From the IMG/VR virus record IMGVR_UViG_2681813186_000015: a stretch of DNA of 10,303 nt; one strand, given 5' to 3'. The notes under the pieces were generated by a model. The model saw only the letters and a list, made by a program, of their open reading frames with translations. It made no database searches and was not told where the DNA came from. Origin of the DNA: a virus (taxonomy: Duplodnaviria; Heunggongvirae; Uroviricota; Caudoviricetes). Shown here piece by piece: positions 1 to 10,303 of the stretch (position 1 is its first letter; each line of letters begins with the position of its first letter). The position numbers and the translations under genes are program-made.

Positions 1-285
1 TTTTCGCTCAATAAGCTGGCGCTTGGCAGCGCAAACATGAGTGTGATGAATACCTGTCATGGCTGCTATCTGCGTGTTTGTGAGTCGATCCATCGGCTTA
101 TTGAATCCGTATGTCTTGCGCATGATAGCGAGCATCACCTTCAACTGCCGGACGGTTAAATCAGCCATCAGCAGACTGTCGGTAATCTCGTTAGCAACGC
201 GCATGAAACCATCTTCGGTATCTGCCACGCGATGCTCCACGACCTCCAGTTGAGGCCTGTAATCAGCTAACTTAACGACGCCCAT
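1..285 (-). CDS. O: Phage lambda O-like replication initiation protein, N-terminal part only (gene continues past the window start)
   Basis: Minus-strand reading frame open from ATG at 285-283 to the window edge; AGGAG 6 nt upstream; in-frame TGA two codons upstream of the ATG. Hand translation MGVVKLADYRPQLEVVEHRVADTEDGFMRVANEITDSLLMADLTVRQLKVMLAIMRKTYGFNKPMDRLTNTQIAAMTGI... matches the lambda O N-terminal region as I recall it (LTKRQFKVLLAILRKTYGWNKPMDRITDSQ). Absent from the ORF track because there is no stop in the window. Confidence 0.8.
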   Translation of the reverse strand, partial: MGVVKLADYRPQLEVVEHRVADTEDGFMRVANEITDSLLMADLTVRQLKVMLAIMRKTYGFNKPMDRLTNTQIAAMTGIHHTHVCAAKRQLIERK

Positions 286-465: not shown

Positions 466-762
466 TCAGAATTGCATATCAATTTGCTTAAAATCCTCGG
501 TGGCAGCCGGGGATTTTTTCTTTGTGATTTCATCAAGCGCATACTTAAAAGCCCTGCTAATCGGACTGATGTCTGATGCCATTCCGAAAGCACACAAGAC
601 CGAAGCAATAAACCGCCAGTCCGTTCTGCTTATCTTCGATTCATGACAGCCAATCATCTTTGCCAGACCGCGCTGTGTAAGCGTTGACAGGTTGATGAGT
701 AAATCTGTTTCTGCGCGATCAACGTCGCGCTGTGATAGTTTGCTGTAACTTGTTCGTTCCAT
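466..762 (-). CDS. cII: CII-like transcriptional activator (lysogeny establishment)
   Basis: 98-aa ORF; C-terminus ...ITKKKSPAATEDFKQIDMQF resembles lambda CII C-terminus (...ILTNKKRPAATERSEQIQMEF, from memory); central HTH LTQRGLAKMIGCHESKISR. Lies immediately downstream of cro on the same strand, as in lambda. Confidence 0.85.
   Translation of the reverse strand: MERTSYSKLSQRDVDRAETDLLINLSTLTQRGLAKMIGCHESKISRTDWRFIASVLCAFGMASDISPISRAFKYALDEITKKKSPAATEDFKQIDMQF
495..523 (+). terminator. Rho-independent terminator on the plus strand inside the 3' end of cII; candidate 3' end of an oop-like antisense RNA
   Basis: Stem CCTCGG (495-500) pairs with CCGGGG (507-512), 5 Watson-Crick pairs plus one G-U, loop TGGCAG, followed by ATTTTTTCTTT (513-523). 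It is antisense to cII, which is where lambda places the oop terminator. Confidence 0.45.
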
Positions 763-903: not shown

Positions 904-1119
904 TTAAGCGGCTTTGTGCTCCGGCGGGAACACGTCATCAAGACTTACTTTTGCGCCTAACTTGTTTAGACACGCAACAAGAGCACGGCATGTTTTAAGG
1001 TCTGGGAAGCGACGACCAGATTCCCAATGTCCGATAGCTCCCTGTGTGCATCCAACTGCCTTAGCAAGTGTTGTTTGAGAGATATTCAGTGACTCTCGAT
1101 ATTTTCGTAGGTTGCTCAT
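904..1119 (-). CDS. cro: Cro-like HTH repressor (Cro/C1-type)
   Basis: 71-aa ORF; ATG at 1119-1117 preceded by GGAGGG; HTH ISQTTLAKAVGCTQGAIGHWESGRR closely resembles the HTH of the divergent CI-like protein ([25 protein letters not shown]); divergent to the repressor across a 110-bp operator region. Confidence 0.8.
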   Translation of the reverse strand: MSNLRKYRESLNISQTTLAKAVGCTQGAIGHWESGRRFPDLKTCRALVACLNKLGAKVSLDDVFPPEHKAA

Positions 1120-1229: not shown

Positions 1230-1889
1230 ATGAAAATGAAATGGTATGAACTGGCTAGATCCAGAATGAAAGAGCTCGGCATAACTCAAGAGAAGTTAGC
1301 CGAAGAGCTAGGTATGACGCAGGGTGGAATTGGACACTGGTTGCGCGGATCTCGTCATCCATCTCTTAGTGATATTGGTGTGGTGTTTAAATACCTTGGT
1401 ATTGATAACATATCATTCAACCACGACGGGACATTTTCACCTGTTGGCGAATACTCATCGGCCCCAGTTAAAAAACAATATGAGTACCCTGTTTTTTCTC
1501 ATGTTCAGGCTGGGATGTTCTCTCCAGAACTCAGAACCTTTACCAAAGGTGATGCGGAGAGATTGGTAAGCACAACCAAAAAAGCCAGTGACTCTGCATT
1601 CTGGCTTGAGGTTGAAGGTAACTCAATGACCGCACCAACAGGTTCCAAACCTAGTTTTCCTGACGGGATGTTAATTCTGGTTGACCCTGAGCAAGCTGTT
1701 GAGCCCGGCGATTTCTGCATAGCCAGACTTGGTGGTGATGAATTTACCTTCAAGAAACTGATCAGGGATAGCGGTCAGGTGTTTCTACAACCACTAAACC
1801 CGCAATATCCAATGATCCCATGCAATGAGAGTTGTTCCGTTGTGGGGAAAGTTATCGCCAGCCAATGGCCTGAAGAGACGTTTGGGTAA
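1230..1889 (+). CDS. cI: CI-like prophage repressor, N-terminal HTH plus C-terminal S24 (LexA-like) self-cleaving peptidase domain
   Basis: [24 protein letters not shown]; Ala-Gly cleavage site in HVQAGMFSP; catalytic Ser in EGNSM and Lys in FTFKKL. The track start at 1188 is a TTG; first ATGs are at 1194, 1230 and 1236. 1230 was chosen because it fits a leaderless PRM transcript; 1236 has better spacing from AAGGA (1224-1228). Confidence 0.9.
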
Positions 1890-2207
1890 AGAGGATAGAT
1901 GGAGTTTAATGGCCATGAGTATCAAGCGGTCAAAAAGAAGTTCATCTATTCATTGAAAGCATAAGGCCATCTGAGTATATCCGTAATGATCTGGATATTG
2001 TCTATAACATCAATGACCGGACGATAGATATCGGTGAGCAGCGTCCTGTATGGCAGGGTGAGGCAGGTGAAAAAACGTCCTGCCATCAACAAGAATCAAG
2101 TGCATCCGCTCTCTGGACAGATGGAAAATTTATTGGATGCAAAAAGATATGAAATAACACCTGTATAGCACGGAGCTTTCTCTGACCGATGCACTTGAAG
2201 TTGTTAG

Positions 2208-2232
2208 GGCTGACCCAGCCTGCTGTTTCTTT
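2208..2232 (+). terminator. Candidate Rho-independent terminator, first of a tandem pair downstream of cI
   Basis: Stem GGCTG (2208-2212) pairs with CAGCC (2216-2220), loop ACC, followed by TGCTGTTTCTTT. Confidence 0.4.
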
Positions 2233-2263
2233 AGGTAAGAGAAAAGAGATTTAGGAGATGAAA

Positions 2264-2290
2264 GGTCGCAGAGGTGCGGCCTTTTTTATT
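2264..2290 (+). terminator. Rho-independent terminator downstream of the cI transcript
   Basis: GGTCGCA (2264-2270) pairs with TGCGGCC (2275-2281), 7-bp stem with one G-U, loop GAGG, followed by TTTTTTATT (2282-2290). Confidence 0.6.
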
Positions 2291-2329
2291 GAGAGTGGAT
2301 CTTGAACGGAAATTCTCAAGACTTGAGTC

Positions 2330-2358
2330 TTGCATGCAAATCAATTCCTGGATAAACT
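2330..2358 (+). promoter_or_regulatory. Candidate sigma70 promoter for the 173-aa accessory gene
   Basis: -35 TTGCAT (2330-2335), 17-nt spacer, -10 TAAACT (2353-2358). Overlaps palindromes CTCAAGaCTTGAG (2315-2327) and TGCATGCA (2331-2338). Confidence 0.3.
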
Positions 2359-2390
2359 CGATCTGAGTCAATAACTTAGAGAGAGAGCAA

Positions 2391-2912
2391 ATGGCAAAGT
2401 CAAACGTTAGCGTGCAGGCATTCAAGGACTTCCTTGAAGAGCTTATGTCGCTGAACATAATGAAGGAGGCCACCGCTCGAAATTTAAAAAACTCATCCGC
2501 TCGCCTCTTAACGGTAGTCCAAGAAGAGGAAATGGGTGATGTTACTCAGCTTGATGTGAATGAGCTTGCCGAGCGATACATCAACGCAACTGAGCCGAAG
2601 CCTAGCGACAGCAGCATTACTGCATATAAAAGCCGCATGGAAAGTGCAATCAAAAAGTTTGTAGCTTTCCAGTCTGGTGAAGAAATCCCATACACTCCGA
2701 TTGACAAAGAATCCAGTGAGGAAAAAGATTTGACTGGCGAACCAACAAAAGTCGAAGGCAAGGCTAATGCACTTCATACCTATGATCTTCCAGTAGTTCT
2801 TCGACCTGAATCAGGGGTTACAGTAACGATTAAAGGCATTCCTAACGATATCACAAACGAAGAAGCCGAACGCATCTCTTCAATTCTGAAGGTTTACGTT
2901 CGGCCTCAATAA
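2391..2912 (+). CDS. Hypothetical acidic 173-aa protein of unknown function, inserted between cI and pL (accessory 'moron' gene)
   Basis: Complete ORF with a GAGAG-type ribosome-binding site; candidate own promoter upstream and hairpin downstream; lies after the cI terminators and before pL. Appears more AT-rich than neighbouring phage genes (by eye). Soluble, rich in D/E, no motif I can assign. Confidence 0.6.
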   Translation: MAKSNVSVQAFKDFLEELMSLNIMKEATARNLKNSSARLLTVVQEEEMGDVTQLDVNELAERYINATEPKPSDSSITAYKSRMESAIKKFVAFQSGEEIPYTPIDKESSEEKDLTGEPTKVEGKANALHTYDLPVVLRPESGVTVTIKGIPNDITNEEAERISSILKVYVRPQ

Positions 2913-2924
2913 TGCAAAAGCATT

Positions 2925-2963
2925 CAGCACAATGTCCAACTCCCCAGTCCGACATTGATGCTG
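2925..2963 (+). other. Stem-loop just downstream of the 173-aa gene (possible weak terminator or 3' stabiliser)
   Basis: CAGCAcAATGTC (2925-2936) pairs with GACATTgaTGCTG (2951-2963), about 11 bp with a small bulge, 14-nt loop, followed by a short TTT. Confidence 0.35.
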
Positions 2964-3085
2964 TTTAACCAGAGCCTCCAAAAGGAGCCCTTGTTAAGGT
3001 ACACAATATTTGCGATGTAACCTTAGCGCGTCTGGTACATTTTTTCAAGCGGTTGTAGGGCTGCCGCCAATATGAGAAAACACAG

Positions 3086-3208
3086 ATGTCTACATACAAT
3101 TTGAATGACCAATTCGATCGAGAAGTTCATGTGAATGCCTATGAACGGATAAGGTATGGAAATCTTGAACATGTGTGTGAGCATTATCGCTCAAGGCCAC
3201 ACCGCTAA
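3086..3208 (+). CDS. Possible small ORF (39 aa), or a short non-coding transcript, ending at a strong terminator
   Basis: ATG 3086 to TAA 3206-3208, translation MSTYNLNDQFDREVHVNAYERIRYGNLEHVCEHYRSRPHR; weak ribosome-binding site; possible promoter TTCAAG-18-CAATAT upstream; strong terminator 8 nt after the stop. Coding status uncertain. Confidence 0.2.
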   Translation: MSTYNLNDQFDREVHVNAYERIRYGNLEHVCEHYRSRPHR

Positions 3209-3215
3209 TCATCAA

Positions 3216-3244
3216 CCCGGCCTCCATGCCGGGTTTTCTTTTCC
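3216..3244 (+). terminator. Rho-independent terminator (plus strand) just upstream of the pL-like promoter
   Basis: CCCGGC (3216-3221) pairs with GCCGGG (3228-3233), loop CTCCAT, followed by TTTTCTTTTCC. The minus-strand version has no U-tract. Confidence 0.65.
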
Positions 3245-3378
3245 TCTCGCCCAAAAAAACACATAACCAATTGTATTTATTGGAAAATAAATAGATACAA
3301 CTCACTAAACAACGCAATTCTGATCTCTCCTTACATCGCCGAGGCAATACACCCACGCTAAAAAACAATACTATTAAA

Positions 3379-3451
3379 TACAAAGCGTTGTAAAAAACCG
3401 CCCCGTTTTAGAACAAATTGTATTGACCAAGTGAAGTACATATCGTACTAT
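3379..3451 (+). promoter_or_regulatory. pL-like early-left promoter with candidate OL operators
   Basis: -35 TTGACC (3423-3428), 17-nt spacer, -10 TACTAT (3446-3451). Near-palindromes TACAAAGCGTTGTA (3379-3392) and AGTACATATCGTACT (3437-3451) share TACA/GTA half-sites with the OR-region palindromes. Confidence 0.55.
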
Positions 3452-3496
3452 TTAACCATCAGCAGGACGCTGGAAGCCAAATGGAACAGACTGGCA

Positions 3497-3542
3497 GGCT
3501 CTTTAAACAACGTCGACTCTCGACTACGTGGCTGAAAAGCCA
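3497..3542 (+). promoter_or_regulatory. nutL-like site (boxA, hairpin, boxB) in the leader of the N-like gene
   Basis: boxA-like GGCTCTTTAA (3497-3506; compare consensus CGCTCTTTA), hairpin GTCGA-CTC-TCGAC, boxB-like hairpin TGGCT-GAAA-AGCCA (3529-3542). Same architecture and near-identical boxB to the nutR-like element on the other strand. Confidence 0.6.
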
Positions 3543-3640
3543 GATCACCCAACCACATAAGCTGTGGGATGCAATGCCGAAGCAACCGTCTCAGGAGGAG
3601 CTTCGAGATTGCATCGCCAAAGTTTATTCGGGAGGAATCT

Positions 3641-3913
3641 ATGTCCAGAAAAACAGAATTTAAAGGCACCGCAGCTTCTCGCCGTAGAGCTCGTCGCGCA
3701 AACCTGCAAAGTCAGGAGGCGATTAGCTCCGACAAACTACACAGGCCAACCCCATCACGAGTGGTCTTACAATGCAAACGCAAACCAGCAATGAGAGCAG
3801 AAGTAATAACACTGACAACGTTGACCAGAAAATATGAAGGCTCAACTTGTCTTCCAAATGTAGCTCTTTACGCGGCAGGCTACCATAAATCCAAACAACT
3901 GACAGCAAGATGA
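3641..3913 (+). CDS. N: N-like transcription antitermination protein (arginine-rich motif)
   Basis: Internal ATG at 3641 with GGAGG (3631-3635) 5 nt upstream; 90 aa; N-terminal arginine-rich motif GTAASRRRARRANLQ resembles the boxB-binding motif of lambda N (…QTRRRERRAEKQAQW…); first gene after the pL-like promoter and nutL. The upstream part of the track ORF (from 3569) overlaps the nut site and was dropped. Confidence 0.6.
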   Translation: MSRKTEFKGTAASRRRARRANLQSQEAISSDKLHRPTPSRVVLQCKRKPAMRAEVITLTTLTRKYEGSTCLPNVALYAAGYHKSKQLTAR

Positions 3914-3971: not shown

Positions 3972-4223
3972 ATGGAATTTCATGAAAGTGCGATTTGTGA
4001 TTTTCGCGCTAACGCAAATTCAGTAAAACCACAGCCAATTGCAGTTCTTTTAAAAACAATGGGTGCGTGGGCTGTTTTATGCTTCGCCGCTGACGACACT
4101 GACGCAAGAATGGCAATAGGACAAGAGATGGAGATGGACCCGACAAACGATGAATTCATAATTTATGGCGCTCCATCTAATTACTTACTTGATACCTGCA
4201 ACATTTACAACAAGGCTGCCTGA
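3972..4223 (+). CDS. Hypothetical protein, 83 aa
   Basis: ATG 3972 with GAGG 6 nt upstream; sits where lambdoid phages carry ral-type accessory genes; no homology recognised. Confidence 0.5.
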   Translation: MEFHESAICDFRANANSVKPQPIAVLLKTMGAWAVLCFAADDTDARMAIGQEMEMDPTNDEFIIYGAPSNYLLDTCNIYNKAA

Positions 4224-4297: not shown

Positions 4298-4359
4298 GGA
4301 GCAATGTCGCTCGTAACTGAACAGGAGCCGACTTGTTCTGATTATTGGAAATCTTCTTT

Positions 4360-4385
4360 GCCCTCCAGTGTGAGGGCTTTTTTAT
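4360..4385 (+). terminator. Rho-independent terminator (tL1-like) within the early-left operon
   Basis: GCCCTC (4360-4365) pairs with GAGGGC (4372-4377), loop CAGTGT, followed by TTTTTTAT. Expected to be read through by N-modified RNA polymerase. Confidence 0.7.
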
Positions 4386-4449
4386 ATGCATACCAATAAC
4401 GCTTCACTCGAGGCGTTTTCGTTATGCAATCAAATATAAGGAGTTACCC

Positions 4450-4584
4450 ATGATGCACTTTCAGCTCGCGGGTAGCGGCGTCATGTCCGCTTTCTACCCG
4501 CACGAATCTGAATTATCACGCCAAGTTAAACAATTAATCAGAGCAGCAAAGAAACAACTGGAGGCGTTATGCGCAATGAAATAG
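4450..4584 (+). CDS. cIII: CIII-like small protein (candidate FtsH inhibitor protecting CII), 44 aa
   Basis: ATG 4450 with AAGGAG (4438-4443) 6 nt upstream; MMHFQLAGSGVMSAFYPHESELSRQVKQLIRAAKKQLEALCAMK resembles lambda CIII (…YAIAGWPVAGCPSESLLDRITRKLRDGWKRL…, from memory); position after N as in lambda and P22. The track ORF start at 4345 spans the terminator and was rejected. Confidence 0.5.
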   Translation: MMHFQLAGSGVMSAFYPHESELSRQVKQLIRAAKKQLEALCAMK

Positions 4585-4721
4585 CCATTAATCACCAGAT
4601 GCTTCGTGCTGCACAGAACAAAGCAGTAATAGCCCGATTTATTGGTGATTCAAAAATGTGGCTTGAAGCAAATAAAGCGATGAAATCAGCTATCAACCTT
4701 CCGTGGTATCGCAGGAAATGA
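4569..4721 (+). CDS. kil: Kil-like small protein (tentative), 50 aa
   Basis: ATG 4569 with GGAGG (4560-4564) 4 nt upstream, overlapping the cIII-like stop; MRNEIAINHQMLRAAQNKAVIARFIGDSKMWLEANKAMKSAINLPWYRRK; the IARFIGDSKMW segment resembles the FIGDEKM region I recall in lambda Kil; gene order cIII then kil as in lambda. Confidence 0.4.
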   Translation: MRNEIAINHQMLRAAQNKAVIARFIGDSKMWLEANKAMKSAINLPWYRRK

Positions 4722-4796
4722 GTTTTACAGATAACTGGTCAGACGAAGAATTCATTCGTCAGATGAAAGATTTAATCGGTAACGAAGGAGATATTC

Positions 4797-4967
4797 ATGT
4801 CACTTGCAACCACAGTGAAGGAGAGCAAGTTACAGAGACGCATGTACACGCAGAAAGCTCTCTGGTATCGCCATAATGGCGACCGCGAAGGAATGCGGGT
4901 ATGCCTTAATTTGTCCCGAGTCGAAGTATTAAATCAGCGTTATTTTCTTGGGCCATGTCCATTCTGA
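4797..4967 (+). CDS. Hypothetical small protein, 56 aa
   Basis: ATG 4797 with AAGGAG (4785-4790) 6 nt upstream; MSLATTVKESKLQRRMYTQKALWYRHNGDREGMRVCLNLSRVEVLNQRYFLGPCPF; stop 4965-4967 is followed 8 nt later by the start of the annealing-protein gene. A competing 52-aa ORF (4718-4876, other frame, ATGA overlap with the Kil-like stop) has weaker Shine-Dalgarno support. Confidence 0.4.
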   Translation: MSLATTVKESKLQRRMYTQKALWYRHNGDREGMRVCLNLSRVEVLNQRYFLGPCPF

Positions 4968-4975
4968 GGTGAATT

Positions 4976-5683
4976 ATGGATTTGAACAAATTCGATGAGC
5001 CATTCAGCCCTGAAGATATCGAATGGCGAATACAGCAAAGCGGTAAAACACGCGATGGAAAGGTGTGGGCTATGGTGCTGGCTTATGTCACGAACAGGGC
5101 AATCATGAAACGCCTGGATGATGTTTGCGGCAAAGCAGGATGGCGCAATGAATACCGCGATATTCCCAACAACGGCGGCGTTGAATGCGGCATATCAATA
5201 AAGATTGATTCCGAATGGGTAACCAAATGGGATGCTGCTGAAAACACGCAGGTAGAAGCCGTCAAAGGTGGTCGTTCCGGTGCAATGAAGCGCGCTGCCG
5301 TTCAGTGGGGAATCGGTCGGTATCTGTATAACCTTGAGGAAGGTTTCGCACAAACATCTCTCGATAAAAAGCAGGGGTGGCACAGGGCAAAACTGAAGGA
5401 TGGAACAGGATTTTACTGGCTCCCTCCATCGCTTCCGGGATGGGCAATCCCAGCATCAGATAACAAACCATCACCAGAAAATACCAACCAGAAATCTCCA
5501 TCGGTTGACTGCGAACAAATCCTGAAAGACTTCAGCGATTATGCGTCAACAGAAACTGACAAGAAAAAACTCATCGAGCGTTATCAGCGTGACTGGCAAT
5601 TAATGGCTGGCAACGAGGAAGCGCAGGCTAAATGCGTTCAGGTAATGAACATCAGAGTTAACGAACTAAAACAGGCGGCATAA
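4976..5683 (+). CDS. Rad52/22-family single-strand annealing protein (phage recombinase, Sak/Erf functional analogue)
   Basis: 235 aa; IMKRLDDVCGKAGWRNEY and KGGRSGAMKRAAVQWGIGRYLY match conserved Rad52 N-terminal-domain signatures; GAGG upstream; directly followed by ssb. Confidence 0.8.
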   Translation: MDLNKFDEPFSPEDIEWRIQQSGKTRDGKVWAMVLAYVTNRAIMKRLDDVCGKAGWRNEYRDIPNNGGVECGISIKIDSEWVTKWDAAENTQVEAVKGGRSGAMKRAAVQWGIGRYLYNLEEGFAQTSLDKKQGWHRAKLKDGTGFYWLPPSLPGWAIPASDNKPSPENTNQKSPSVDCEQILKDFSDYASTETDKKKLIERYQRDWQLMAGNEEAQAKCVQVMNIRVNELKQAA

Positions 5684-6190
5684 ATGGCAAGCAGAGGCGT
5701 AAATAAGGTGATTATCCTTGGTCGGGTAGGACAAGACCCGGAAGTTCGATACTCACCATCAGGAACAGCGTTCGCTAACCTGACAATAGCCACGTCAGAA
5801 CAATGGCGAGATAAAAATACTGGCGAGCAAAAGGAATTGACTGAATGGCATCGTGTTGCTGTATCCGGGAAACTGGCTGAGGTCGTGGGGCAGTATGTGA
5901 AAAAAGGTGATCAGATTTATTTCGAAGGAATGCTGAGAACCAGAAAGTGGAAAGACCAGTCAGGGCAAGACCGTTACACAACCGAGGTTCATGTCGGAAT
6001 TAATGGCGTGATGCAAATGCTTGGCGGCATTGGCGACAGCAAACAACAAGCAGCCAGCAGGCAATCACAGAAGCCACAGCAGCAATCATCACCAGCACAA
6101 CACAACGAACCTCCGATGGATTTTGACGACGATATACCCTTTGCACCAGTAACTCTCCCCTTCCCTCGTCACGCTATTCACGCAATTTAA
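5684..6190 (+). CDS. ssb: Single-stranded DNA-binding protein (SSB), with a 15-aa extension beyond the canonical DDDIPF terminus
   Basis: [23 protein letters not shown]…TEWHRV…[19 protein letters not shown]…MDFDDDIPF is near-identical in pattern to E. coli SSB; the ORF continues [15 protein letters not shown] before TAA at 6188-6190. Start abuts the upstream stop (TAAATG). Confidence 0.9.
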
Positions 6191-6198
6191 GGACTTAC

Positions 6199-6747
6199 AT
6201 GAATCACTTAATGGTTGACCTTGAAACAATGGGCAACGGGCCATACGCGCCAGTTATTTCTATTGGGGCGGTATTCTTTGACCCGAATACCGGAGAAACA
6301 GGAGAAGAGTTCTCGGTAAATATCTCGCTTGAGTCATCAATGCGATATCGGGCGCGTCCTGACGCTTCAACGATTTTATGGTGGATGGAACAGAGTGAAG
6401 AAGCCAGAAAATCGCTAACCAGCAACACTCAAGAGCTTTCAACGGCTCTTTCATGGTTATCTGAATTCATCATAAAGAACGCTAACCACAAATTCGTTCA
6501 GGTTTGGGGGAATGGAGCATCATTTGACTGCGTTATTCTCCGAAACAGTTATTCGCTGACAGGGCAGCCAGTTCCGTGGCAGTGGTGGAATGACCGCGAC
6601 GTAAGAACAATCGTCGAACTTGGGAAGGTAATAGGATTCGACCCTAAGCGAGATATGCCATTCAAAGGAACTCGCCACAACGCGCTTGATGATGCCATTC
6701 ACCAAGCCAAATACGTTTCAGCGATCTGGAAAAAGTTAGCTAAATAA
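6199..6747 (+). CDS. DEDDh-family (DnaQ-like) 3'-5' exonuclease
   Basis: 182 aa; Exo I motif MVDLETMG, Exo II WGNGASFD, Exo III RHNALDDAIHQA (H-x4-D); AAGGA 5 nt upstream of ATG 6199. Confidence 0.75.
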   Translation: MNHLMVDLETMGNGPYAPVISIGAVFFDPNTGETGEEFSVNISLESSMRYRARPDASTILWWMEQSEEARKSLTSNTQELSTALSWLSEFIIKNANHKFVQVWGNGASFDCVILRNSYSLTGQPVPWQWWNDRDVRTIVELGKVIGFDPKRDMPFKGTRHNALDDAIHQAKYVSAIWKKLAK

Positions 6748-6763
6748 TCAACAGGAGAAAACC

Positions 6764-7060
6764 ATGCCAGCGCCTCTGTATGGTGCGGATGACGCGCGCC
6801 GCTGTTCCGGCAATTCCGTATCGGAGGTGCTGGATAAATTCAGGAAAAACTACGACAGGATAATGTCGCTACCGCAGGAAACGAAAGAGGAAAAGGAATT
6901 TCGCCACTGTATATGGCTTGCAGAGAAAGAAGAACGCGAGCGAATTTACCAGACATCAATCCGACCATTCCGCAAAGCCACATATACCCACTTCCCTGAA
7001 TATATCGACCCGCGCCTGCGTAATTACCGCTCACGCTATGGCGCTATCAGTAATGGTTGA
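6764..7060 (+). CDS. Hypothetical protein, 98 aa
   Basis: ATG 6764 with AGGAG (6753-6757) 6 nt upstream; basic and acidic stretches; no homology recognised. Confidence 0.6.
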   Translation: MPAPLYGADDARRCSGNSVSEVLDKFRKNYDRIMSLPQETKEEKEFRHCIWLAEKEERERIYQTSIRPFRKATYTHFPEYIDPRLRNYRSRYGAISNG

Positions 7061-7070
7061 GGAATTAACA

Positions 7071-7361
7071 ATGAAAACAATGAAGCTAAACATCGACCTC
7101 GGCAAATACGTTATTACCGGAACCAAACACGACCTGATTCTTAGTGAAAGAGGAATTATCAAAGAAGGTGAGAATGCAGGGAAAGAAACACTAAGTCGTA
7201 TCGGTTATTACAGCAAGTTTGAGCATCTGGTTAAAGAGTTATGCAACCGTGAAATTCTGTTATCTCAGGCGCAGACGTTACAGGATATTCAGCAGCATAT
7301 CGAGACTGTATGTGTGTCACTTAGCATGGCTATTGACCAGTTCGTGGAGAGTAAATCATGA
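7071..7361 (+). CDS. Hypothetical protein, 96 aa
   Basis: Internal ATG 7071 with GAGGAA (7059-7064) 6 nt upstream, right after the previous stop; the track ORF start at 6918 overlaps the preceding gene and was rejected. Confidence 0.6.
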
Positions 7362-7522
7362 GGGGACTTGCATACAATCCCGGCATTCTTCCGGCAGAAA
7401 TGATTATTCGCCAACGCGTAAAGCCAATGCCATCGAGAGAGGAATTGCTTAAGAGAAATTCTTTTCCATCAGTGAATCAAAACAAATATCTGAATGCGAT
7501 GTGGCGGAGTGGGAAGAAATGA
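7358..7522 (+). CDS. Hypothetical small protein, 54 aa, translationally coupled on both sides
   Basis: ATG 7358 overlaps the upstream stop (ATGA); GGAGAG 7 nt upstream; its stop TGA 7520-7522 overlaps the next start ATG 7519 (ATGA); [54 protein letters not shown]. Confidence 0.4.
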
Positions 7523-8019
7523 AACAAATGACACTAATTGAGATGGATGGTTTTCTGAAAGGTGAATGCATCCCACGAGATTTAAAGGTTAACGAAACAA
7601 ACGCTGAATATCTTGTCCGTAAGTTCGGTGAACTTGAATCAAAACTAGAAACGGCGTTGCGGGAGTGTCGTTCTGCTGGAATCACGATTGATAACCTTGA
7701 GGCCAAGTGCGCGGCGCTGGTAGCGGAGAGTGCGGGGATGAAGAAGTTCTGCAAAGACGCTGCATTCGATGCCGATTACGAAGCAGAGCTAGGTATGGAG
7801 CGTGGTGGATTCAGTGATGCGCTTAACGAAATCAAAACCCCAGCCACCGATGCTTTCCTGGCTGAAGTCCGGGCTAAGGCGTTTGATGACCTTTGCGCGG
7901 CGTTCGTTAAGCACGCGTCGGTGTCCGGGCTGGACGATGGCGACTGCGTTACGGTGAAAGAGGCGACTGACGCTCTGCTGCATTGTGCGGAACAGCTTCA
8001 CGAGGGAGTGCATTCATGA
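7519..8019 (+). CDS. Hypothetical protein, 166 aa
   Basis: ATG 7519 chosen over the track GTG start at 7501; acidic, Ala-rich; no motif recognised. Confidence 0.6.
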
Positions 8020-8249
8020 GCAACCTACTACCATGTCCATTCTGTGGCGGCGCAGCGCACGTTGCCAGCGAAGCAGATCACCCTGAATATGGCTCTGGCG
8101 GTCGATTCTATTTCGTTCGATGCGGTACGTGTCGCGCTCAATCTGGTAGCAAATATGCAGCGCCTGGAAATGACTGCGCGATTTTTTATTCAGAGGTTAG
8201 AGCAGAGTGGAATCAGCGAGCAAAGGAGGCAACCAGTGAGCGAAATTGA
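8016..8249 (+). CDS. lar: Lar-family restriction-alleviation protein (small zinc-ribbon protein)
   Basis: ATG 8016 overlaps the upstream stop (ATGA); GAGGGAG 7 nt upstream; 77 aa with CPFCGG … CGTC … AEWNQRA, matching the Lar family pattern as I recall it (CPFCGG N-terminal knuckle, WNRRA-type C-terminus). Confidence 0.65.
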   Translation: MSNLLPCPFCGGAAHVASEADHPEYGSGGRFYFVRCGTCRAQSGSKYAAPGNDCAIFYSEVRAEWNQRAKEATSERN

Positions 8250-8832
8250 CTATCAGGCACTGCGTGAGGCGGCGGAACGTGCAATTCCAGCAATGGAACG
8301 CCTGTTAATGTTGCCAGTTGATGATGATTTGTTAAGTGAACAGGAACTTAAAGATTACGGTGTGGATATTGATGCGCTCAACGCCTTCAAATTTCTGGCC
8401 GGACCAGAAACCGTGCTGGCACTACTGGATGAGATCAACGCATTAGAGGAAACGCGTATCAACGATGTTTGCCGTATTGCGGAACTAACAAAACAACTGG
8501 AGTCGGCAAAATCAAAACTCAACGAGCAGCGTGAATATTACGAGGGAGTAATCTCGGATGGGAGTAAGCGTATTGCAGAACTGGAAAGCAACGAAGTCCG
8601 TGAAGACGGAAATCAGTTTCTTGTTGTTCGCCACCCCGGGAAAACTCCTGTCATCAAGCACTGCACTGGTGACCTGGAAGAGTTTCTGCGGAAGTTAATC
8701 GAACAAGACCCGTTAGTAACTATCGACATCATTACGCATCGCTATTACGGGATTGGCGGTCAATGGGTTCAGGATGCAGTTGAGTATCTGCATATGATGT
8801 CTGACGCAGGTATTCGCATCAAAGGAGAGTGA
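8236..8832 (+). CDS. Hypothetical protein with predicted coiled-coil segment, 198 aa; start uncertain
   Basis: GTG 8236 preceded by AAGGAGG (8223-8229) with 6-nt spacer, overlapping the Lar stop by 14 nt; earlier in-frame ATGs (8089, 8155) lie inside the Lar gene; central heptad-like region INALEETRINDVCRIAELTKQLESAKSKLNEQ. Confidence 0.5.
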   Translation: MSEIDYQALREAAERAIPAMERLLMLPVDDDLLSEQELKDYGVDIDALNAFKFLAGPETVLALLDEINALEETRINDVCRIAELTKQLESAKSKLNEQREYYEGVISDGSKRIAELESNEVREDGNQFLVVRHPGKTPVIKHCTGDLEEFLRKLIEQDPLVTIDIITHRYYGIGGQWVQDAVEYLHMMSDAGIRIKGE

Positions 8833-8833
8833 T

Positions 8834-9382
8834 ATGACCACTATAACCGATAAGAAACAGTATCCCAGCAAGCAATATCTTAATGAGCTGATCACCAACA
8901 TAGAGTTTGCTGCAAGGGCACCAGTTGAAGTCGTGAGAGCGATGGCAGCAGAGCTACAGAAGCGGCGCGAAGCTGATAGTGCAGAACCTGTAAGCCAAAC
9001 TTACAAGTTGCCAGTTAATACACCTTGCCAAGATGCGCCAGCCCATATCTGGCTGCAAACGGCTGGAGTATGGCCAGAAGATGGCGAGTTAAGCGAATTA
9101 ACGTGGTGCAGCCACAATCAGCACCATGATGACACGCTATATGTTCGAGCTGACCTTGTGAATGGCAACTCTCCGGTAATTCCGGATGGTTGGATAAGCT
9201 GTAGTGAGCGAATGCCGGATAAGTTAATTCCGGTAATGGTCATGTATGAAGACGGTGAGATGTGGTCTGCAATGTGGAATGGTAATCGCTGGGATGATGG
9301 CACCGAATATCCGGATCCGCACTCAGTTACGCACTGGCGTGAAATGCCAGCAGCACCGAAGCAGGAGGTTAACCGTGGCTAA
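8834..9382 (+). CDS. DUF551-like phage protein
   Basis: 182 aa; ATG 8834 with AAAGGAGAG upstream; C-terminal …SVTHWREMPAAPK resembles the conserved DUF551 C-terminal signature (…THWMPLPEPP) as I recall it. Confidence 0.6.
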   Translation: MTTITDKKQYPSKQYLNELITNIEFAARAPVEVVRAMAAELQKRREADSAEPVSQTYKLPVNTPCQDAPAHIWLQTAGVWPEDGELSELTWCSHNQHHDDTLYVRADLVNGNSPVIPDGWISCSERMPDKLIPVMVMYEDGEMWSAMWNGNRWDDGTEYPDPHSVTHWREMPAAPKQEVNRG

Positions 9383-9659
9383 CCTGCAACTTGCCGTTAA
9401 AGGTGAATACTTCGATGCCATGATTCGCGGAGAGAAAACGGAAGAGTATCGCCTGTGTAATGACTACTGGAAAAAGCGCCTCGTTAACCGTAAGTATGAC
9501 CGCCTGATTATCACAAAGGGATATCCGAAGCGCGACGACTTCAGTCGCAGAATTGATGTCCCGTATGACGGATATGAAATCAAGACAATCACACATCCCC
9601 ACTTCGGCGATAAACCGGTAAAGGTATACGCGATAAAGGTGAATATCAGCAATGAATAA
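9375..9659 (+). CDS. Hypothetical protein, 94 aa
   Basis: GTG 9375 preceded by AGGAGG (9363-9368) with 6-nt spacer, overlapping the upstream stop; the track ORF start at 9246 lies inside the previous gene. Confidence 0.5.
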   Translation: MANLQLAVKGEYFDAMIRGEKTEEYRLCNDYWKKRLVNRKYDRLIITKGYPKRDDFSRRIDVPYDGYEIKTITHPHFGDKPVKVYAIKVNISNE

Positions 9660-9730
9660 CAATCCTCGCATTCGCGGGGATTTCTTTTATCTGAACTCGC
9701 TACGGCGGGTTTTGTTTTATGGAGATGATT

Positions 9731-10030
9731 ATGGCCTGTTCAACATTCAACCCTCTAACGTTACAGAAATACCAGCCAGACCCTGAAGATTTATGCTCAC
9801 TGTGTGGCGGAAATCATGGTAAAGCAGCCATGATCGAATGTAAGGACAAAATCCACATTTGCCTTAATTGCGTTGATGTCCTCGTTGATATCAAAAATGA
9901 GAGAGAAGATAAAAAGCGTAGCGAGGCTGTTCGCGCCTTAGATTCATGGATGCGAGATGGATATAGTGCCGCGCAAATTTATGACTTAGCAATATCAAAA
10001 GGCGAAATACCAGGAGTACGCATCGAATAA
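9731..10030 (+). CDS. Hypothetical Cys-rich protein (possible zinc-ribbon), 99 aa
   Basis: ATG 9731 with GGAG (9721-9724) 6 nt upstream (alternative ATGs at 9719 and 9725); CSLCGG … CLNC spacing suggests a four-Cys metal site. Confidence 0.55.
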   Translation: MACSTFNPLTLQKYQPDPEDLCSLCGGNHGKAAMIECKDKIHICLNCVDVLVDIKNEREDKKRSEAVRALDSWMRDGYSAAQIYDLAISKGEIPGVRIE

Positions 10031-10072
10031 GACGTAACCGATATTCGAATTGAAGAACTGAAAGAACACCAA

Positions 10073-10096
10073 GCCGCCTGATGGCGGTTTCTTTTT
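10073..10096 (+). terminator. Rho-independent terminator upstream of the excisionase-like gene
   Basis: CCGCC (10074-10078) pairs with GGCGG (10083-10087), loop TGAT, followed by TTTCTTTTT. Confidence 0.6.
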
Positions 10097-10111
10097 GCCT
10101 GGAGAATTAAG

Positions 10112-10303
10112 ATGACCGATACCAGCCTGATTCCTGAGAAAGAAGTGATGAACAAGCTCGGTGTTTCATCACGTCAGACAATCTGGAACTATACCAAACG
10201 GCACGGATTTCCGAAGCCAGTCAGAACCCACCCCAAATCATACCTTCGTGAAGCTGTTGAAGGGTGGATTCTTAACGGTGGCGTTAATCAGAAATGCTCC
10301 TGA
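10112..10303 (+). CDS. AlpA-family phage transcriptional regulator / excisionase-like protein
   Basis: 63 aa; ATG 10112 with GGAG 7 nt upstream; LIPEKEVMNKLGVSSRQTIWNYTKRHGFPKPVR is the typical AlpA/Xis-type HTH pattern; sits at the distal end of the early-left operon where xis precedes int in lambdoid phages. Confidence 0.75.
   Translation: MTDTSLIPEKEVMNKLGVSSRQTIWNYTKRHGFPKPVRTHPKSYLREAVEGWILNGGVNQKCS

Follow-up and report, generated by a model that had tools for sequence, protein, structure and literature searches.

In a 10,303-nucleotide (nt) stretch of viral DNA (Caudoviricetes; IMG/VR record IMGVR_UViG_2681813186_000015; hereafter, the window), we identified a mobile cassette at about positions 2325 to 3243, located between the repressor gene cI and the OL/pL-N region. 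Judged from its homology limits, it is an autonomous two-gene moron, consisting of a promoter, an open reading frame (ORF) of 173 amino acids (aa; ORF173), a palindromic stem-loop, a small gene (H0092), and a terminator. A moron, in the sense of Juhala and Hendrix, is a promoter-gene-terminator unit inserted between conserved genes of lambdoid phages. Structure modeling indicated that the ORF173 product is a non-catalytic descendant of tyrosine recombinases with a DNA-binding-type fold. Tentatively, with a probability of about 0.38, we read ORF173 as a repressor or antidote of H0092, the two forming a pair of the addiction or abortive-infection type. The gene itself (ECs1184), its undeletability, and the cI-N hotspot had already been published; the fold, the family and its extent, a candidate operator, the small partner gene, the limits and second location of the unit, and the terminator shared by the slot are new.

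The ORF173 protein was identical to H0093/ECs1184 of VT2-Sakai/Sp5, which is named ECs_1184 of prophage Sp5 in the Sakai chromosome, and was found with at least 99% identity in 234 of 5,426 complete Escherichia coli genomes. The ratio of non-synonymous to synonymous substitution rates (dN/dS) was 0.27 against the Salmonella homologue, 0.22 against that of Proteus, and 0.18 against that of Serratia, and was still lower inside the two folded domains. The plus-strand, ATG-initiated gene that had been proposed from the sequence is therefore genuine, and purifying selection maintains it as coding DNA. Its product is acidic, as had also been proposed, with an isoelectric point (pI) of 4.85 and a net charge of about -8. 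The gene had further been described as richer in AT than its neighbors, but this did not hold: the GC content was 0.444 in ORF173 and 0.443 in the cassette, compared with 0.456 in cI, 0.469 in N, and 0.460 in the window, and that of third codon positions was 0.431 in ORF173 and 0.423 in cI. Neither ORF173 nor the cassette showed the deviant nucleotide composition by which morons may be recognized.

Sequence searches of ORF173 against Pfam, NCBIfam, PADLOC, and PDB assigned no family and returned only sub-threshold SAM-like matches, such as Phage_int_SAM_1 in Pfam (E 0.047). The protein belongs to PHROG 2602, whose function is unknown. An AlphaFold (AF2) model built from a 147-sequence alignment, with a predicted local distance difference test score (pLDDT) of 89.9, consisted of a four-helix domain of the integrase core-binding type, a linker, and a small beta-beta-alpha domain (Table 1). 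Weak matches to four different Phage_int_SAM families of Pfam were found in 13 of the 147 members, and no Phage_integrase match, which would correspond to the catalytic domain (R-K-H-R-H/W-Y), was found in any of them. ORF173 thus combines a recombinase core-binding domain, without the catalytic domain, with a new small domain, a beta-beta-alpha module of 45 aa. The first-pass annotation had found no assignable motif in the product and thus missed this domain; the profile searches and structure prediction it had called for gave the core-binding fold. Foldseek against the viral models of BFVD returned nothing at E ≤ 1e-3. The closest known folds to the N-terminal part are the core-binding/SAM-like domains of lambda Int, XerD, and IntI4, and MrpR/SroF, recombinase-derived repressors of SPbeta-like phages, are among the closest known systems.

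The C-terminal module followed the consensus PIPLRxxLxVxIxGLPxDLTxxEAxKIA. A profile of this domain (48 sequences) gave no credible match in PDB or Pfam, and DUF5343 was not matched in the Pfam scan of the members, the C-terminal likeness to a neighboring DUF5343 protein being one seen by eye only. This domain probably mediates dimerization or partner binding. A profile search detected 653 clusters at E ≤ 1e-3 (50% identity representatives), and among the best 150 of these representatives nearly all were 157-208 aa long and matched end to end. The family extends from prophages of Enterobacterales to Alphaproteobacteria, Acidobacteria, and Dehalococcoidia. Among basic residues, conservation was highest at K33, R62, K80, R82, R138, and R161. 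The linker was usually basic (median +4) across the wider family, whose median net charge was +3; the enterobacterial phage clade, being acidic, is unusual.

The feature had been taken to end at position 2963, but the unit continues to 3243 and includes a second gene, H0092. This gene clearly evolves as a coding sequence: 22 of the 33 nt differences from the copy in a Pseudescherichia vulneris prophage fell on codon position 3, with 18 synonymous and 6 non-synonymous codons. In phage SH2026Stx1, a 57%-identical homologue of H0092 follows gp20, a 38%-identical homologue of ORF173, at equal distance. A small ORF was located 150-175 nt downstream of the family gene, on the same strand, in all 44 of the examined phage or prophage loci carrying the family (five lineages). 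In the window, the gap between ORF173 and H0092 is 173 nt and holds the -20 kcal/mol hairpin. The downstream ORF was H0092-like in three lineages; those of Proteus and Serratia were of other kinds, and it is doubtful whether they are related to H0092 or to one another. No match to H0092 was found in Pfam, NCBIfam, PADLOC, or PDB sequences, and its PHROG family is of unknown function. In Ralstonia phage YO038_1, two tandem small ORFs, one Proteus-like (42 aa) and one H0092-like (36 aa), were located just 3' of a gene for an ImmA/IrrE-like HExxH protease (L049 1183-2277).

Comparison with related loci delimited the mobile unit. In Salmonella prophages, homology extended from the upstream terminator to position 3243, and the part 3' of ORF173 (approximately 90-95% identical) was better conserved than ORF173 itself (82.6%). 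One protein, 100% identical among the loci, adjoined three Salmonella cI proteins that were mutually 18-28% identical and accompanied by different cro types, and the Proteus, Serratia, and SH2026Stx1 prophages with an ORF173 homologue carried yet other repressors. The cassette is thus uncoupled from immunity type. In the P. vulneris prophage, the unit was found after a Q-type antiterminator gene and before the holin and lysozyme genes, with homology starting exactly at the -35 box and ending after the terminator (3243). A promoter (putative) and a terminator of its own were present, and the unit was present or absent between conserved neighbors. By these comparisons the cassette is a textbook moron occurring at two classical sites, cI-N and Q-lysis, and the earlier view of a self-contained, acquired moron in a cI-pL/N hotspot was borne out by its homology limits, its unrelated cI neighbors, and the Q-site copy. 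Unlike a typical moron, it has ordinary composition, contains two genes, and may not be dispensable.

The gene order also confirmed that ORF173 occupies the slot equivalent to that of rexAB. The interval between cI and N has been reported as a mosaic hotspot, containing rexAB in lambda and bstA in BTP1 (PMC8585504). A 24-nt core of the terminator upstream of the cassette, AGGTCGCAGARRTGCGGCCTTTTT, recurred almost unchanged in 111 viral contigs that differ in cI and in cargo, and the survey of the interval in relatives suggested by the first-pass annotation was carried out on 80 of them. The ORF173 family was located about 105 nt downstream of the core in 24 of the 80 loci, and 50 carried other cargo, including a P63C-domain protein of 315-345 aa (20 loci), a ParA-like ATPase (AAA_31; 12 loci), and a Cys-rich small protein (7 loci); N was usually the next gene after the cargo. 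Because the cargo behind the core varies, the hairpin at 2260-2290 is a shared terminator of the cI operon and, as it appears, a recombination boundary, and the cI-N interval is, as far as these loci indicate, an exchangeable cargo site. The hairpin was rejected as a cassette-specific element, since 50 of the 80 hairpin loci lacked the family.

Several neighbors of family members were observed in this survey and in other genomes. A DUF3024 gene, matching the PADLOC candidate PDC-S43 (E 4e-37), was located between cI and the ORF173 homologue in Proteus/Providencia (L003 5422-5763) and in SH2026Stx1 (L047 1221-1562). In a Lysobacterales-type lineage, the family gene overlapped, via its stop codon, a conserved gene of 198 aa (L050 1594-2190, L053 3061-3657, L015 7555-8154), whose product has two N-terminal transmembrane (TM) helices and no match in Pfam, PADLOC, or NCBIfam. 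This arrangement resembles an operon of two genes, one of them encoding a membrane effector. A distant family member was located directly 5' of a DUF5343 gene (PDC-M34A) and a Hypoth_Ymh/HEPN-like gene (L017 7001-8792); the Hypoth_Ymh gene matched PD-Lambda-3_B and Aga_HEPN, and a PIN-PhdYeFM toxin-antitoxin pair was nearby.

Two terminators had been proposed distal to cI. The plus-strand hairpin with its stem at 2260-2285 was upheld, as none of 200 shuffled sequences was as stable; the other candidate, at 2207-2221, folded no better than shuffles (z -0.88). The former was 92-96% conserved in the Salmonella, Proteus, and Serratia loci, and a different terminator preceded the P. vulneris copy. 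The putative promoter of ORF173 is weak by consensus (7/12, under the threshold of the promoter scanner), and its position was kept in Salmonella, Proteus (TTGCAA-17-TAGAAT, 9/12), and P. vulneris (TTGCTA-17-TAGAAT), so that the proposal of a separate promoter remains plausible. The palindrome abutting it was unique within the window, and its core AGACT-N(1-2)-AGTCT recurred in Salmonella and P. vulneris. It is a possible second operator; being just 4+4 bases long, it is statistically not distinctive. The spacer between the stem-loop and H0092 is possibly a leader of the small ORF. No plus-strand promoter was matched within it except at 3072-3100, which overlaps the ATG of H0092. An RNA gene in this conserved spacer was considered and rejected: an Rfam scan of 1800-3700 revealed none, and the Sp5 small RNAs AgvB and AsxR are located elsewhere, at the pR' moron site. 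The supplements of the paper on cross-linking and analysis of cDNA (CRAC) with Hfq contained no mention of ECs1181-1185. At the other end, the terminator stem at 3214-3235 coincided with the point where, on the right, the copies in Salmonella and P. vulneris cease to be homologous.

A candidate DNA target emerged from non-phage members of the family. Palindromes were searched in the 160 nt upstream of 34 such members, a discovery set separate from the phage cassette. ATGTC...GACAT was found upstream in six loci and TGTCT...AGACA in five, compared with at most two in shuffles, and exact ATGTC-N(0-16)-GACAT occurred only twice in the 691-kb background of the same loci. With up to one mismatch and within 250 nt upstream, the site was present in 15 of 33 loci and in 101 of 1,008 control windows (Fisher p 4e-7, an optimistic value given the post hoc choice of motif and the relatedness of some loci). 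Most sites of distant members read TGTC-N5/6-GACA and lay at -27 to -90. Several were flanked by a TATAAT-like box on one side and the Shine-Dalgarno sequence on the other, which is where operators for autoregulation classically occur. These patterns suggest that the family members are likely sequence-specific binders of ATGTC-N-GACAT, usually in their own promoters for autoregulation.

The arms of the palindrome after ORF173 are exactly the ATGTC/GACAT half-sites, and one arm was identical over 9 nt to the site ATCAATGTC-N6-GACATTGAT of a Novosphingobium member (L028). This palindrome, which confirms the stem-loop noticed earlier after the stop codon and has no clean U-tract, may serve as an operator for ORF173, as a leaky terminator separating ORF173 from H0092, or as both. 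In Salmonella, the arms were unchanged and the 14-16 nt center was inverted: the center CCAACTCCCCAGTCCG at 2937-2952 of the window appears there as its reverse complement CAGACTGGGGAGTTGG (L009 6537-6552). By its sequence, this is a loop flip, as from template switching or recombination in a quasi-palindrome; with the arms kept and the center flipped, both the DNA site and the RNA hairpin are preserved. A strong hairpin was present directly 3' of the large gene in every lineage, with differing sequences; the palindrome was therefore rejected as a universally conserved site, other lineages having unrelated hairpins there. No ATGTC...GACAT site was found in OL/OR, and the one exact site in the cassette was its own palindrome. 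The start of H0092 (3086-3111) holds ATGTC-type half-sites, ATGTCTACAT, and P. vulneris has an exact ATGTC-N16-GACAT there (L165 5001-5026). A second binding site could thus overlap the start codon of H0092, although chance may also account for it. Additional cI operator-like half-sites at 3094-3103 were judged to be due to chance, because the sequence is conserved in cassettes with unrelated cI proteins.

Published experiments bear on the function of the gene. In-frame, marker-free deletions of Sp5 genes were constructed in a K-12 lysogen by sacB allelic exchange, and 43 mutants were made, but deletions of ORF23 (ECs1184) and ORF21 (ECs1180) were never obtained (Mondal et al., Sci Rep 2016; PMC5155283). 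The authors concluded that the deletion was apparently lethal and that the genes were probably needed for stable lysogeny; no conserved domain was found in ECs1184 (PMC5155283). In a 2025 study in Nucleic Acids Research, the ECs1184 protein was recovered in the RNA-associated proteome (TRAPP) of enterohemorrhagic E. coli (EHEC) Sakai cultures at a false discovery rate of 0.065, and in the polynucleotide kinase (PNK) assay its signal was no stronger than that of GFP (PMC7618764). The protein is hence made, but is not a strong RNA binder.

In the reading that we tentatively prefer, which is the simplest to accommodate all the observations, ORF173, as a probably dimeric and sequence-specific DNA binder, would be made in the lysogen from its own promoter and would bind the palindrome at 2925-2963, perhaps also that at the -35 box. 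It would thereby limit the expression or activity of H0092, possibly also by direct contact through the C-terminal domain, and H0092 would be harmful when unchecked. The intergenic hairpin would keep the expression of the second gene below that of the first. The restraint of a harmful H0092 by ORF173 would explain why ECs1184 could not be deleted, and addiction or abortive-infection logic is compatible with the known preference of the slot for defense genes. The pairing with a 2-TM protein in the Lysobacterales-type lineage supports, at the level of gene arrangement, the notion of a single regulator or sensor whose effectors can be exchanged. An unlikely extension of this notion is that phages have recruited the family, a domesticated core-binding domain plus a new module, as the antidote or sensor component in a novel type of cassette, whose partner is a 40-aa peptide in lambdoid phages and a 2-TM protein in another lineage.

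The cassette resembles type II toxin-antitoxin systems in that the pair is co-directional and moves as a unit (the 44 loci; joint transposition in P. vulneris), the first gene could not be removed alone in the published work, and the second is set for lower expression. ORF173 also has the acidic character, DNA-binding-type domain, disordered linker, and operator-like palindromes of an antitoxin. Unlike those systems, the cassette has a gap of 150-175 nt with a hairpin instead of translational coupling, the putative toxin has 40 aa, is not basic, and belongs to no toxin family, and the core-binding domain is not a known antitoxin DNA-binding fold. A tight operon was absent from the cassette, gene overlap being found only in the Lysobacterales-type lineage with the 2-TM partner.

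Several findings weigh against a repressor or antidote of H0092. The net charge of -8 is odd for a DNA binder, given the family median of +3, and the ATGTC...GACAT site was absent in the Proteus, Serratia, and SH2026 lineages. The wide gap with its hairpin is atypical of type II toxin-antitoxin operons. H0092 is near-neutral (pI 6.9) and, at its small size, matches no known toxin family, and an H0092-like ORF occurs in a Ralstonia P2-like phage without the ORF173 family. A conserved partner gene was not found for non-phage members in 28 genome loci, where they were mostly single genes; because most of them are solitary, the antidote role cannot be ancestral. As to the failed deletion, a regional or technical cause is possible, because the nearby ECs1180 was also undeletable and the negative result comes from a single study. 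No phage-challenge, transcription start site, or RNA-seq data on ECs1184 were found in the literature.

Alternatively, ORF173 may sense DNA of superinfecting phages, or replication or recombination intermediates, and trigger exclusion or abortive infection, alone or with H0092, the undeletability then being technical or indirect. The genes rexAB, bstA (Salmonella BTP1), and stk (933W) occupy the same slot in the same orientation, between cI and OL/pL-N, and the first two mark it as a hotspot (PMC8585504). BstA has a comparable two-part architecture, with an N-terminal DNA-binding domain and a second domain. The alternative cargo behind the same terminator, the DUF3024 (PDC-S43) neighbors in Proteus and SH2026Stx1, the distant member beside DUF5343 (PDC-M34A) and a HEPN-like Hypoth_Ymh gene, and the coupling of another lineage to a 2-TM protein, a typical abortive-infection effector, also favor such a sensor. 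ORF173 differs from the three known systems in lacking KilA-N, RexA/RexB, or kinase domains or any sequence relationship to them, and in having its own putative promoter instead of the shared pRM. With E cutoffs of 1 or 0.1, no family in PADLOC 2.0, RexAB and Abi included, matched ORF173, H0092, gp20, or a distant member. Moreover, rexAB, bstA, and stk deletions are viable, whereas ECs1184 was reported undeletable, so that a dispensable defense moron fits poorly, and most non-phage members are found in housekeeping neighborhoods with autoregulatory operators, like transcription factors. We regard a defense sensor as rather unlikely.

Mondal et al. proposed a role in the maintenance of lysogeny (PMC5155283), in which ORF173 would keep the lytic program off, for instance by repressing an early promoter or an antirepressor or by dampening induction, and its loss would induce the prophage and thereby kill the cell. 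The failed deletion, the position next to cI and OL/pL, and the DNA-binding fold agree with this proposal. It is nevertheless improbable: the identical protein occurs with cI proteins of 18-28% identity and different cro types, the same terminator is followed by N without the gene in 50 of 80 loci, the P. vulneris unit occupies the late region, well away from the immunity genes, and OL/OR lack the candidate site. An immunity-specific co-repressor, in particular, was set aside on the cI identity matrix and the Q-site copy, and fits poorly because of the unrelated repressors and the many sister phages without the gene. As a regulator for lysogenic conversion, ORF173 would instead reprogram host genes carrying ATGTC...GACAT, with H0092 unrelated and the undeletability an artifact. 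In alphaproteobacterial and acidobacterial chromosomes, solitary autoregulated genes of the family are widespread, the protein is detectable in EHEC cultures, and Stx (Shiga toxin) prophages are known to modulate host regulons. The constant pairing with a small ORF and the co-mobility argue that both genes work together, no host target is known, and the failed deletion would be left unexplained, which makes a host-directed role quite improbable.

Table 1. Coordinates of the cassette and of surrounding features in the window (residue numbers refer to ORF173).
Feature	Position	Strand	Remarks
cII	466-762	-	
cro	904-1119	-	
cI	1236-1889	+	
cI (pRM) operon terminator	2260-2290	+	stem 2260-2285 and T-run; -15.9 kcal/mol, z -4.5 against shuffles
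Palindrome CAAGACTTGAGTCTTG	2317-2332	.	abuts/overlaps the -35 box
Putative sigma-70 promoter	2330-2358	+	TTGCAT (2330-2335), 17 nt, TAAACT (2353-2358); from sequence
ORF173 (H0093, ECs1184, Sp5 ORF23)	2391-2912	+	173 aa, ATG start
ORF173 core-binding (SAM-like) four-helix domain, integrase type	residues 8-95		AlphaFold and weak Pfam matches
ORF173 acidic disordered linker	residues ~101-128		low confidence in the AlphaFold model
ORF173 beta-beta-alpha domain (beta-hairpin and helix)	residues 130-168		conserved; pLDDT ~95
Palindrome/stem-loop CAGCACAATGTC-N14-GACATTGATGCTG	2925-2963	+	-20 kcal/mol, z -5.35
Spacer	2964-3085	+	almost unchanged from E. coli to Salmonella; P. vulneris copy less conserved
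H0092 (formerly ECs1183)	3086-3208	+	40 aa; phrog_21154
Cassette-end intrinsic terminator	3214-3245	+	stem 3214-3235; z -4.75; labeled pRM-transcript terminator in AP000422
OL/pL	3376-3451		between cassette terminator and nutL
N	3641-3913		after nutL

The window belongs to a lambdoid Stx phage, of which it represents the immunity and early-left region, and ORF173 has the same orientation as cI. The segment 1890-3450 was 99.9% identical to VT2-Sakai, Stx2 phage 1717, phage 2851, and many Stx phages of O157:H7. To the right of about 4300 the window diverges from Sp5, and the best phage record covers at most 51% of the whole window; the window thus appears to derive from a mosaic relative. The early-left operon at about 4300-10303 was unlike that of Sp5, whose version has exo-bet-gam, and contained a candidate for a Rad52/Rad22- or Erf-type recombinase (4976-5683) and a gene for a protein resembling single-stranded DNA-binding protein (5684-6190), as well as more ORFs, all assessed from translations only. 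About 370 nt (1890-2259) separate the stop codon of cI from the terminator hairpin; they were without an annotated gene and held only short ORFs, such as one of 44 aa at 2034-2168 with no PHROG match; the corresponding gap was only about 75 nt in the Salmonella loci. In RefSeq, a 60-aa ORF (ECs_5705) is annotated at 3481-3663 on the plus strand, across the nutL leader and overlapping the start of N. Just 3' of N, an 83-aa plus-strand ORF (3972-4223) is the homologue of ECs1180 (Sp5 ORF21), and no Pfam or NCBIfam match was found for it.

Phages of the Sp5/VT2-Sakai type carry Stx2a in the O157:H7 lineage. In a systematic deletion study, only ECs1184 and one other Sp5 gene resisted removal. ECs1184, so far an unexplained and apparently lethal gene, now has a fold, a likely DNA target, a partner gene, and mobile-unit boundaries. 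Whatever ORF173 does, the terminator AGGTCGCAGARRTGCGGCC-T-run provides a landmark for mining cI-N cargo genes. If ORF173 and H0092 do form an addiction or abortive-infection pair, a recombinase-derived DNA-binding domain would join the known antitoxin and sensor folds, and the finding would bear on how stable Stx prophages are, on competition among phages in the gut, and on prophage curing and engineering. The Sp5 prophage could then not be cured of ECs1184, and carriage of the toxin phage might be stabilized by the cassette.

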